A stretch of DNA of 50,977 nt. It comes from a virus (Duplodnaviria; Caudoviricetes). Location of the stretch: positions 1-50,977 of the IMG/VR virus record IMGVR_UViG_3300024974_000003, one strand, 5' to 3'. The translations under genes and the position numbers were made by a program. Below the pieces are notes generated by a model. That model made no database searches. It was not told where the DNA came from and worked only from the letters and a program-made list of their open reading frames with translations. Of this stretch, positions 2,083-3,410 are shown one piece after another; the first letter of the stretch is position 1; the number at the start of each line of letters is the position of its first letter.

Positions 2083-2126
2083 TTTTTTATTACAACCCCT
2101 TAAATACGATGACGTAAAACTATGAA

Positions 2127-3410
2127 ATAGGATATATCAATAGTTTATTAAACACATTAATACCTAGATCTTCTAATCAGGTAAACGGGTTGGCTCCAAT
2201 TGGAGATAATAATTCAATGCTTTTCAAAGCGATTTTCTCAACAGCTTGGGAAAATATAGATCAAAACTTTTATACAAGACTTGCACAAACTATTGACCCT
2301 ATCGATAGTGCAATAACTTTTTATGCTGAAATACTTTCGAGTGGCATTTTAAAATCACTTGACAAAGAGGGTAATGATGTTACCGATAAAGATGTACTTA
2401 TTGCCCTTTTAAAAAATCCAAATGCAAATCAAAACTTCCAACAATTCATTAAAGAATGGATTTATTACCATTTTTCTCACGGTTGGAATTATGTAGTTCC
2501 TCAATGTTCTAGCGTTGGATTCGAAAAGAAATTAGGAGGCACAACAAAAACAGAACTTTACAATTGTGACCCCGACCATTTTACTTGGGGAAGTGATTCT
2601 TATTTTTTTGGATTGATAAAAAACAAGAATGTAACTTTTTCATATAAACCCCTCGATTTCGTAAACATCGATTATAAAGATGTTATTTCATTTATAGACG
2701 TTCGCCAAAATTCAGAGAAACCGCACATCGGAGTTTCTCGTTGGCTTGCTTTGAAAAAACAAATCGAGAATTATTCCTTAGCACTTCAAGGAGACGAAAA
2801 TCTAATCAAAAGATCAGGATCTATTTTGGTTTCGCTAGACTCCAAAAATAATGAGGATATGGGATTAGATTCTATGGTAGGAACAGGCCAGTTTGATAAA
2901 GACGGCACGCCAATAACAACAACTCAAAAAGCACAGCTTGAAAAACAGTTGAAGGAAACGGGATTGGGTAATAATTCGATGGGAATTATGTATTCATCAC
3001 TTCCATTAAAATCACAGCCACTTTCTTCTGGCCTTGAAAATATAAAGTTTGATGATAAAATGATAGGCTATGCCCGCCAAATCTACAATAAACTTAACGT
3101 GCCGAAAGAGTTTCAAAACCTCGATAAGGAAACAGCAAAATTTGCGAATAGACAAATGGCAATGATGGAAGTAATTCAAAATACTATTGAACCTTTGGCA
3201 GACTCTTTTTGCGATAAAATGAAAACCTATTTCAAATGGGAAAACACAATCAAAATAGACTTTTCACATCTTCCAGTCTTTGCAGATAATGAAGAAACTA
3301 AAACAACTACTCAACAAGCAATAGTAACTCTATACACAGGATTGTTTGAAAAAGGAATTATAGATCAAACTCGATTAACTCAAATACTTGAAGAAAATGG
3401 AATTATCTAA
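2127..3410 (+). CDS. Portal protein (proposed ATA start 2127; ORF track start TTG 2190)
   Basis: LLKNPNANQNFQQF...GWNYV portal-like motif; first gene of head module; frame open back to TAA at 2115. Confidence 0.88.
   Translation: MGYINSLLNTLIPRSSNQVNGLAPIGDNNSMLFKAIFSTAWENIDQNFYTRLAQTIDPIDSAITFYAEILSSGILKSLDKEGNDVTDKDVLIALLKNPNANQNFQQFIKEWIYYHFSHGWNYVVPQCSSVGFEKKLGGTTKTELYNCDPDHFTWGSDSYFFGLIKNKNVTFSYKPLDFVNIDYKDVISFIDVRQNSEKPHIGVSRWLALKKQIENYSLALQGDENLIKRSGSILVSLDSKNNEDMGLDSMVGTGQFDKDGTPITTTQKAQLEKQLKETGLGNNSMGIMYSSLPLKSQPLSSGLENIKFDDKMIGYARQIYNKLNVPKEFQNLDKETAKFANRQMAMMEVIQNTIEPLADSFCDKMKTYFKWENTIKIDFSHLPVFADNEETKTTTQQAIVTLYTGLFEKGIIDQTRLTQILEENGII

Follow-up and report, generated by a model that had tools for sequence, protein, structure and literature searches.

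A leader cassette with a putative AUA start codon, overlapping the stop of a two-codon mini-ORF, heads portal and tail genes in a small Flavobacteriia phage group

Introduction

Bacteroidia initiate translation without Shine-Dalgarno pairing and depend strongly on the AUG itself. Start codons of the AUN type are found elsewhere in bacteria: E. coli infC and pcnB start at AUU. The putative start described here resembles these two in being a near-cognate AUN codon that is evolutionarily conserved and goes with low expression; it differs in being AUA, in lying embedded in a mini-ORF, in having no link to start-codon fidelity factors, and in heading virion structural genes of several unrelated families within one phage group. 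Two-codon ORFs are also known from phages. The lambda 'bar' minigenes read AUG-AUA-stop, and they act via peptidyl-tRNA drop-off and tRNA starvation. Background on such minigenes is given in PMC2490762. The cassette that we describe likewise contains a natural phage AUG-sense-stop ORF, but bar minigenes do not serve ribosomes as an entry point into a gene behind them.

Translational coupling by termination-reinitiation was reportedly described by Huber et al. in 2019. PMC12548453 describes -4 nt overlaps, ribosomes that scan to the closest start, and 'delivery' of ribosomes by short ORFs. In -4 nt (NTGA) coupling as presented there, the upstream stop overlaps the downstream start by 4 nt and the start nearest the stop is used, and an upstream ORF that solely brings a ribosome has been proposed; the arrangement described here is alike in these respects. 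It is unlike NTGA coupling in that the overlap is A-TAG or A-TAA and the start is AUA rather than NUG, in that the upstream ORF has just two codons and opens a transcript at its 5' extremity instead of separating a pair of genes, in that a conserved extra box precedes it, and in that the hosts do without Shine-Dalgarno pairing. The same source describes the lysis gene of the RNA phages fr and MS2, whose weak start is reached only by ribosomes terminating nearby. The cassette would share with it a start that is poor de novo and activated by termination in another frame, and a low-dose phage protein as the product; there, however, a long coat gene lies upstream and the start is canonical, whereas here the upstream ORF is a dedicated two-codon ORF and the start is AUA.

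Judged by its sequence organization, the cassette would be a variant of translational coupling with a non-AUG start. The original prediction that drew attention to this locus knew of no described phage system of this kind, and we found none in the literature searched. Baez et al. 2019 (PMC6847099) mentions neither AUA, AUU, uORFs nor reinitiation, and Kalstrup & Blunck 2015 (PMC4648390) was set aside as bacterial evidence because it concerns eukaryotic reinitiation in oocytes.

Results

The portal frame is open through an ATA inside a two-codon mini-ORF

We analyzed a 50,977-nt stretch of DNA from a Caudoviricetes virus (hereafter, the window). According to the original prediction, its portal frame lacks an early ATG and is open through an ATA that lies within ATG-AAA-TAG, and we confirmed both the coordinates and the frame. 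ATG AAA TAG occupies 2122-2130, and ATA 2127-2129 overlaps its stop. It shares its frame with TTG 2190 and the PF04860 portal ORF, whose end is at 3410; this frame is open from 2118 only, and TTG 2190 is the first ATG, GTG or TTG in it. The same 10-mer had been reported in the same frame relation ahead of a second late unit, which also proved correct: TATGAAATAG lies at 15636-15645, and ATA 15642 opens a tail gene that ends at 17231 and has its first canonical start at ATG 15723. A terminator-like hairpin closes the unit upstream of the portal (Table 1), so the portal heads a new transcript. The whole window contains no tRNA genes.

Table 1 Coordinates of features at the two late units and of the control gene in the window
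Feature	Position	Strand	Remarks
Terminator-like hairpin and T-run	1999..2028	+	Stem of 8 pairs (1999-2018) followed by GTTTTTTTAT; shuffled sequences average 0.1 such sites
-7 promoter box TACATTTG (TAnnTTTG)	2075..2082	+	Present in 18/19 cassettes
Leader box CGATGACG (consensus CGATNACG)	2107..2114	+	C-G-A-T-N-A-C-G invariant in 19/19 cassettes
Mini-ORF ATG ACG TAA, lineage-specific	2109..2117	+	Only in the window, L001 and L003/L295
Two-codon mini-ORF ATG AAA TAG	2122..2130	+	ATG invariant across 19 cassettes
Portal gene read from ATA 2127, 427 codons + stop	2127..3410	+	PF04860, E=4.6e-22
TTG picked by gene callers	2190..2192	+	In 12 tabulated loci: TTG 8, ATG 2, TTA 2
'Family 3' virion gene, ordinary ATG, natural control	12862..15552	+	Starts 2 nt after upstream TAA
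-7 promoter box TATTTTTG, second late unit	15594..15601	+	
Leader box CGATTACG, second late unit	15623..15630	+	
Two-codon mini-ORF ATG AAA TAG, second late unit	15637..15645	+	
Tail/virion gene 'family 2' read from ATA 15642, 529 codons + stop	15642..17231	+	

This arrangement is a property of the DNA and not an assembly slip, as contig X2 from an independent run is identical to the window over 1900-2163 (0 differences) and the device recurs in independently assembled relatives. Transcriptional slippage or a homopolymer error (AAA for AAAA) was rejected because the independent run is identical and because mini-ORFs with AGA, GCA, CGA or ACA as the sense codon lack an A-run. Stop-codon recoding was also rejected: a TAG read as sense meets a TAA six codons on in the mini-ORF frame.

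Within the window, the exact 10-mer occurs at these two sites only; with at most one mismatch there are 15 matches against 7.85 expected. The looser pattern ATGNNATAR has 19 sites on both strands, and it heads a long ORF without an in-frame upstream canonical start at only these two. When the leader box was included (CGATNACG-N5-8-ATGNNATAR, 23-24 nt), we found two forward matches, none on the reverse strand and none for the backwards-read control.

The mini-ORF is part of a cassette ahead of late phage genes

Relatives were expected to keep the motif. They keep ATG-NNA-TAR together with an upstream CGATNACG box, but not the exact 10-mer. Sixteen homologous loci from isolate genomes, MAGs, IMG/VR and metagenome contigs (52-88% identity) could be read at the 5' end, and in 15 of them this cassette precedes the portal gene; the exception, L072, has an ordinary ATG. 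Only these homology-found loci are an unbiased sample, since cassettes found by pattern were preselected for CGATNACG, ATG and ATA.

The cassette begins with TAnnTTTG, which we take to be the Bacteroidota-type -7 promoter consensus and which lies 11-24 nt 5' of the CGATNACG box in 18 of 19 cassettes. The box is followed after 6 nt (16 cassettes) or 7 nt (3 cassettes) by ATG-NNA-TAR. ATG and ATA are each present in 19/19, and the stop is always kept (TAG in 16, TAA in 3), with TAG enriched relative to gene stops (16/19 vs 6/33). The sense codon before the stop is AAA in eight cassettes and AGA in eight, with GCA, CGA and ACA occurring once each. All cassettes found have ATA as the start, and a search of five records with the relaxed pattern ATGNNNTRR revealed no ATGNNATGA form.

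Cassettes head 2-3 late genes per phage and four gene families overall. There are two copies in the window, two in G001, two plus one variant in the G003 prophage, three in the G004 prophage, two in the G010 contig, and one in the G006 provirus, where the portal gene behind the cassette belongs to an unrelated family (phrog_7376, whose profile matches from residue 2). The variant, which precedes the family-3 gene of G003, has a four-codon mini-ORF (ATG AGA TAT AAA TAA) and a box spacing of 3 nt. Its stop lies 5 nt downstream of the ATA, so strict overlap of the ATA with TAR, as seen in 19 of 20 cassettes, is not obligatory.

We searched for the cassette more widely. A search of IMG/VR yielded 62 matches, nearly all of them chance occurrences inside ORFs (..D-E-I..), and a wider search yielded 106 stretches; after an ORF filter, there was one new real instance among the matches listed (L269, identical to L291). 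Among the matches listed in these scans, the cassette looks confined to a small phage group. A metagenome scan added four portal loci, and 401 Flavobacteriaceae genomes contributed G004 only. The carriers of the AUA-start cassette are phages of Flavobacteriia.

The cassette genes almost certainly start at AUA

Substitution rates after the ATA are 0.40, 0.32 and 0.55 at codon positions 1, 2 and 3, as in coding sequence. The corresponding values for the leader, taken in this frame, are 0.35, 0.43 and 0.22 and do not fit coding, and the window lineage has a 1-nt indel there. We thus rejected the upstream peptide 'DYGNYEI' as coding; its least variable third positions and the frameshift in the window lineage indicate that this stretch is conserved at the nucleotide level.

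Alignments place the N-terminus at the same point. In tblastn searches with the portal, relatives with a readable 5' end match from query residue 1-6. The Ile that ATA encodes in L068 and L076 lines up with Met1 of the portals P0030, P0033 and P0045, and ATG-type orthologues have their Met at the ATA position or within 0-8 residues of it. The near-cognate ATA is conserved, with orthologues carrying ATG in the same alignment column. The cassette genes have no in-frame ATG, GTG or TTG between the upstream stop and the conserved N-terminus, and the first canonical codon lies 15-56 codons downstream. The 21-codon extension of the portal is coding, as had been predicted, by both its substitution pattern and its alignment to ATG-started portals. 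In an AlphaFold2 model of the portal with the extension (mean pLDDT 68), residues 1-44 have a pLDDT below 50, which makes the model uninformative for the N-terminus.

The other two families of the window gave corresponding results. In family 2, M-D-x-S-F-L begins 13 of 45 homologues, and the window gene reads I-D-N-S-F-L. The first canonical start of family-2 orthologues is at codon 15, 27 or 56, a position that is not conserved, and one ATA-type orthologue runs on for 56 codons before a canonical start appears. In family 3, for which the window gene serves as a natural control, the Met at 12862 falls in the same column as the Ile that ATA encodes in the G003 orthologue, and the full cassette is present in the G001 and G004 orthologues. 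Because coding-type conservation begins at the ATA and orthologue Mets lie at or near it, AUA is almost certainly the start codon of the portal and tail genes, with the protein beginning at or beside the ATA.

Entry at AUA may be coupled to termination of the mini-ORF

We propose that the cassette is a late-transcript leader in which the AUA gene is entered by reinitiation after mini-ORF termination, at a low and fixed dosage; we put the probability of this reading at roughly one half. A host-type promoter (the -7 box) would be followed by ~24 nt of CGATNACG-N6/7-AUG-NNA-UAR in the leader of a late structural transcript, where the invariant AUG would load ribosomes. These would make fMet-X and then terminate, and a fraction of the post-termination ribosomes would use initiator tRNA to start again at the near-cognate AUA next to it. 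Since AUA starts are weak, the operon's first gene (the 12-copy portal or a low-copy tail-tip protein) would be expressed at a low, hard-wired level, and the downstream high-copy genes (scaffold, capsid) would use their own AUGs.

The A-UAG or A-UAA overlap has the usual -4 nt geometry and is the TAR counterpart of AUGA. Invariance of ATG, ATA and stop alongside a varying sense codon fits termination coupling and argues against -1 slippage. A post-termination ribosome could equally go back to the AUG 6 nt upstream. The virion proteins behind the cassette are probably held at a low, fixed level, and the earlier suggestion that low-copy virion proteins are limited in this way agrees with what the cassette genes encode, namely the portal and two structural proteins of the tail end. 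That AUA entry is coupled to mini-ORF termination, and that the cassette sets dosage, we infer from sequence.

Ribosomes might instead initiate de novo at the AUA, with the AUG mini-ORF only a competitor or decoy, or a neutral relic, and without any reinitiation. We consider this unlikely. AUA does initiate at ~1-2% of AUG in E. coli, according to 10.1101/063800, and the G003 variant, which keeps ATG-NN-ATA and moves the stop, suggests that the AUG-AUA distance outweighs the overlap. However, the AUA's own context falls at the 2nd-6th percentile in a profile of the phage's own 51 ATG starts, and a decoy would be an odd means of weakening an already weak start. A relic is hard to fit with an invariant ATG followed by a stop within two codons (19/20) or four codons (1/20) in four families.

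Reinitiation presupposes ribosomes on the mini-ORF, whose AUG had been credited with a good Bacteroidota start context. This did not hold: in the same profile, the two mini-ORF AUGs fall at the 31st (mediocre) and 4th (poor) percentile, so efficient loading there is not evident without an extra factor. A phage or host factor might bind the box on the mRNA at the Shine-Dalgarno position and load or gate ribosomes; late structural translation would then be switched on or off, with the AUG/AUA pair as the landing site. The box is invariant in 19/19 cassettes, and its spacing to the ATG is fixed and that to the promoter variable, which ties it to the translation start and not to the promoter. It replaces the A-rich tract of normal starts (-14 to -11) with C/G, bases almost never seen there (G at -13 in 0/51 starts), and it is one-stranded and non-palindromic, without an inverted partner nearby. 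In G004, G009 and G010 it is found in prophage or phage contigs only, besides two chance-like matches inside G004.

Set against this, the comparison of G006 with the window offered no candidate factor: the eight shared ORFs comprise recombination genes, an HTH protein and an uncharacterized 95-aa protein after terL, and none of the eight is a convincing RNA-binding candidate. Shine-Dalgarno-type pairing of the box with rRNA found no support. Partial 16S of G004 has no exact complement of the octamer, a full Flavobacteriaceae 16S has none even with G-U pairs allowed, and the best match of the 24-mer to 16S (17/24 pairs) does not exceed shuffled controls (mean 16.3, maximum 19). The 19 leaders share no RNA fold and no Rfam family was found at the cassette; in L066 and L067 the box can pair with a downstream CGTAAT, and in other leaders it cannot. 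The box could also work on DNA instead, and overall gating by such a factor seems doubtful to us.

The two readings can be combined in a tentative and, in our judgment, similarly doubtful one, in which a factor-read box licenses late ribosome loading and obligatory mini-ORF termination is followed by restart at the AUA, making the cassette a self-contained, phage-specific initiation module. If this is true, the licensing factor would be phage-encoded or late-induced, and the module would both switch late translation and set dosage, serving hosts without Shine-Dalgarno pairing on a site passed over by their normal A-rich rule.

A programmed -1 frameshift from the AUG, which the original prediction had offered as a second route, is very improbable. 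The NNA peptidyl-tRNA would slip at the waiting UAG or UAA to give Met-Lys-Ile-Gly. A slow stop codon in the A site stimulates P-site slippage, the tRNA on AAA could shift onto GAA with a single G-U pair, and UAG is enriched in the cassettes. However, the sense codons are all preceded by G, and AAA is the only one that could shift in this way: AGA, GCA, CGA and ACA, found in the other 11 cassettes, allow no -1 re-pairing. An X XXY YYZ motif is absent, the 19 leaders have no downstream structure in common, and the Met of ATG-type orthologues coincides with the ATA position instead of preceding it by two residues.

Finally, we give very little credence to TTG 2190 and ATG 15723 as the true starts, with the upstream stretch a leader conserved for some other reason: gene callers do pick these codons, and TTG or ATG occupies the 2190 codon in 10 of 12 loci, above the 27% TTG share of Leu codons, but the extension has third-position-biased substitutions and is homologous to the N-termini of ATG-started portals and of the 13/45 family-2 proteins, the family-2 downstream codon is not conserved, and because 2 of the 12 tabulated portal loci (L001 and L067) have TTA at the 2190 codon, that position is not a conserved start.

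Discussion

Gene callers shorten these portal and tail proteins by 15-56 residues. We found 46 of 49 portal homologues and about 28 of 45 family-2 homologues called short, and the same mis-calling is probably common in Bacteroidota phage catalogues. A natural AUA start on a two-codon ORF also provides a system for studying start choice by post-termination ribosomes in Bacteroidia, and it can reveal how stringent start-codon proofreading is in these bacteria. The cassette would further offer a simple setting of low portal and tail-tip stoichiometry relative to the capsid genes on the same transcript and, if it works as proposed, its 24 nt would make a portable low-output start module for Flavobacteriia.

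Two features near the cassette deserve separate mention. TTG 2190 is possibly a minor internal start: the presence of TTG or ATG at codon 22 in most of the tabulated portal loci makes a second, shorter portal product possible. The second uORF that had been pointed out ahead of the mini-ORF, ATG ACG TAA, does exist at 2109-2117, but it is not conserved. It arises only because the box has N=G and is followed by one extra base, and L296, an 88% relative, has CGATTACG with 6-nt spacing in its place.

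The mini-ORF cassette is conserved at the heads of late structural genes

In the window record, which is complete (50,977 bp with direct terminal repeats, 34% G+C, and no tRNA genes found along its length), ATA 2127 shares its frame with the PF04860 portal ORF ending at 3410. The original prediction that the portal lacks an early ATG and that this ATA is overlapped by a mini-ORF (a short ATG-to-stop ORF) agrees with the sequence; the portal frame is open from 2118 only, and its earliest ATG, GTG or TTG is TTG 2190. The second late unit proved to carry the identical 10-mer in the same frame relation, as had been claimed: ATA 15642 opens a 529-codon ORF whose earliest canonical start is ATG 15723. 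The exact 10-mer is found at these two sites and nowhere else in the window, and among its 19 ATGNNATAR sites only 2122 and 15637 open a long ORF lacking an in-frame upstream canonical start. Because a hairpin with a T-run lies upstream of the portal leader and a TAnnTTTG box (which we take to be the Bacteroidota -7 promoter element) lies upstream of each site, the portal gene and the 15642 gene each head a transcription unit. An Rfam DUF805b RNA motif (RF02914; 40 bits, gathering threshold 35.6, E=6e-8) lies close 5' of the portal unit; its neighbours are a DUF3127/SSB-like gene at 1312-1590 and, at 1643-1870, a small phrog_6978 gene.

Coordinates of the cassette sites and associated features
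Feature	Record	Position (strand)	Remark
DUF805b RNA motif	window	1590-1621 (+)	
Terminator-like hairpin + T-run	window	1999-2018 (hairpin)	upstream of portal leader
TAnnTTTG	window	2075-2082	upstream of portal site
ATG ACG TAA	window	2109-2117	lineage-specific mini-ORF, upstream of portal mini-ORF
ATG AAA TAG	window	2122-2130	two-codon mini-ORF of portal leader
ATA	window	2127-2129	overlaps AAA/TAG boundary
TAnnTTTG	window	15594-15601	upstream of second site
TATGAAATAG	window	15636-15645	second copy, same as portal site
Degenerate cassette	G003 prophage	39484-39508	L304:19484-19508
~95-aa protein	window	50189-50473 (+)	
~95-aa protein	G001 (88% relative)	18919-18623 (-)	
~95-aa protein	G003 prophage	25306-25548 (+)	
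~95-aa protein	G006 provirus	23807-23505 (-)	

Portal homologues were gathered by protein similarity, blind to the leader, from IMG/VR, GTDB genomes and metagenome contigs. The mini-ORF and ATA are conserved among them: of 16 loci with a readable gene 5' end, 15 (52-88% amino-acid identity) have ATG-NNA-TAR, its ATA in frame with the portal. Several MAGs are among these 15, as are the isolate genomes of Epilithonimonas caeni DSM 17710 and Flavobacterium sp. SUN046. At the remaining locus (L072), an ordinary ATG lies immediately 3' of a hairpin. In all 15 cassette-bearing loci, the octamer CGATNACG (the box) was invariant, 6 or 7 nt 5' of the ATG. The second upstream ORF of the original prediction, ATG ACG TAA, is limited to the close lineage of the window, where the variable base N of the box is G and one extra base follows it; the corresponding sequence in L296, an 88% relative, is CGATTACG, spaced by 6 nt.

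A whole-record search with CGATNACG-N5-8-ATGNNATAR revealed the cassette two to three times per phage (two copies each in the window, G001 (an 88% relative), the G003 prophage and the G010 phage contig; three in the G004 prophage, on contig 18) and once in the G006 provirus, while the backwards-read control pattern gave zero matches in the same phage records. A sequence-only model trained on 18 cassettes recovered every pattern-found copy plus one degenerate copy in G003. Pattern-found cassettes were preselected for box, ATG and ATA; unbiased evidence of conservation comes from the homology-found portal loci only. Across 19 full cassettes, N was T in 13, G in 4 and C in 2; box-to-ATG spacing was 6 nt in 16 and 7 nt in 3; the sense codon was AAA (8), AGA (8), GCA, CGA or ACA (1 each); the stop was TAG in 16 and TAA in 3; and TAnnTTTG lay 11-24 nt upstream in 18. 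The degenerate copy consists of CGATTACG, 3 nt and a four-codon mini-ORF (ATG AGA TAT AAA TAA) in which ATA still lies 5 nt after the ATG, with no exact TAnnTTTG upstream. We regard the observation of the cassette and its ATA as solid. Window genes stop with TAA (25), TAG (6) or TGA (2), versus TAG in 16/19 mini-ORFs. TAG is read by RF1 only; the mini-ORF bias could equally arise because codon 2 favours a G at its first position.

The cassette heads four gene families: the PF04860 portal; an unrelated portal family (phrog_7376, in the G006 provirus), whose profile match begins at residue 2 of the protein read from ATA; the 15642 type (here family 2), with a weak F5/8 type C domain match below the Pfam cut-off and no PHROG match; and a virion structural protein (phrog_15220, here family 3). 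The last is the next gene after a 1089-aa ORF (9590-12859) without a PHROG match, taken as the tape-measure protein by size and position. Every cassette-headed gene is the first after a promoter, within the structural module.

ATA is the probable main start codon

Four lines of evidence, namely substitution pattern, family 2, family 3 and portal alignments, agree that AUA is very probably the main start codon (probability roughly 0.85-0.9). Downstream of the ATA, nine equally long portal loci show differences of 0.40/0.32/0.55 at codon positions 1/2/3, a coding signature; in the same frame the leader gave 0.35/0.43/0.22, with third positions most conserved. This pattern, and a frameshift there in the window lineage, led us to reject an upstream peptide, D-Y-G-N-Y-E-I, whose apparent conservation therefore reflects nucleotide-level conservation of the box.

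In family 2, 13 of 45 homologues from a protein search start M-D-x-S-F-L, versus I-D-N-S-F-L read from the ATA of the window gene. ATA-type orthologues align from I1-D2, one of them having 56 codons without a canonical start, and the cassette is absent from the ATG-type loci L312-L317. One ATG-started homologue (L317, ~880-925) has a box-like CGATAACA 9 nt 5' of its ordinary ATG, after a TAnnTTTG-like box; this may represent the cassette in a decayed or ancestral state. The window family-3 gene (12862) has an ordinary ATG two bases past the upstream TAA, and in alignment its Met falls opposite the Ile that ATA encodes in the G003 orthologue (MNNFLDTNSF vs INNPIDINAF). Finally, an ATG with a full-length N-terminus occurs in 3 of 49 portal homologues (P0030, P0033 and P0045), whose Met is level with the Ile encoded by ATA at loci L068 and L076, 7-8 residues N-terminal to the others.

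TTG 2190 is not conserved as a start, and the extension ahead of it is coding-type. At this position (portal codon 22, after N-G), 12 tabulated loci have TTG (8), ATG (2) or TTA (2). Because TTG makes up 27% of Leu codons, TTG or ATG in 10/12 exceeds expectation, so that a minor internal start is conceivable and with it a second, shorter portal isoform.

The box may act on the mRNA beside the mini-ORF start

Fifty-one ORFs of the window phage that begin with ATG served to derive a start profile. Normal starts carry A at -14 to -11 (33-42/51 at -14 to -12) and at -7 to -3, with G and C almost absent there and G at -13 in 0/51; the box puts C, G, C and G at -14, -13, -8 and -7. Against these real starts, the mini-ORF ATGs at 2122 and 15637 score at the 31st and 4th percentiles, the latter no better than a random ATG, contrary to the good Bacteroidota start context claimed originally. 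This context is mediocre or poor, and something about the box must be either tolerated or functional. Its Shine-Dalgarno-like position, its fixed spacing to the AUG (that to the promoter floats) and its asymmetry point to a predicted action on the mRNA beside the start. Complementarity of the box to 16S rRNA did not exceed that seen with shuffled controls, the leaders shared no conserved RNA fold, and Rfam gave no match at the cassette. At L066 and L067, CGATTACG can pair with ATCGTAAT in the coding region (portal codons 10-12) as a 7-bp stem not seen in the other 17 leaders. Outside phage DNA in the bacterial assemblies G004, G009 and G010, the box occurred twice, both in G004 and chance-like.

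The boldest reading left, that the cassette is a putative factor-gated, late-specific initiation module, we consider unlikely. G006 and the window, otherwise unrelated, share only eight ORFs (recombination genes, an HTH protein and a ~95-aa protein after terL), and no candidate box-binding factor was found among these. The ~95-aa protein, without a Pfam or PHROG match, lies directly 3' of terL in all four phages (window, G001, G003 and G006); in G006 its gene sits just upstream of the portal cassette.

Coupling to mini-ORF termination is the most economical proposed route to the ATA

Cassettes conserve an ATG, an ATA five bases on and a stop; stop and ATA overlap in 19 of 20, the exception being the degenerate G003 copy, which precedes a family-3 gene. 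The A-TAG or A-TAA overlap has the geometry of the ubiquitous -4 nt NTGA junction between genes under translational coupling, except that the downstream start is ATA, the only near-cognate start possible in this geometry with a TAR stop. The review PMC12548453 describes the -4 nt junction as a coupling arrangement, cites work on phages fr and MS2 as evidence that ribosomes, on terminating, scan to whichever start is nearest, and relates a proposal that the role of short ORFs is to bring ribosomes to a coupled gene; AUA has ~1-2% of AUG activity in E. coli (10.1101/063800). Given these precedents, the weakness of AUA and the conserved geometry, the most economical reading is a putative coupling of mini-ORF termination to AUA restart.

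Arrival in the portal frame by a -1 slip of peptidyl-tRNA at the mini-ORF stop, as originally suggested for a stalled UAG, is highly improbable. The NNA tRNA could conceivably re-pair on GNN where the codon is AAA, which AGA, GCA, CGA and ACA do not allow; the slippery heptamer and a downstream fold common to the leaders are absent; and in orthologues started at ATG the Met coincides with the ATA rather than lying two residues before it. Transcriptional slippage and sequencing error were rejected because some cassette variants lack an A-run and an independent run gave identical DNA.

For coupled restart, a ribosome would initiate at the mini-ORF AUG, take one elongation step and terminate, and some terminated ribosomes would restart at the overlapping AUA. 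The result would be low, hard-wired output of the first gene in a strongly transcribed late operon. Portals are present at 12 copies per virion, and low output would suit portal and tail-end proteins encoded before the scaffold and capsid genes, which have AUGs of their own. We class the finding with translational coupling and non-AUG starts; searches of article full texts, those on Bacteroidetes initiation included, yielded no account of a phage structural gene started at AUA, nor any of the present cassette. For family 3 in the window, the same position would be reached through ordinary coupling to the upstream 1089-aa gene.
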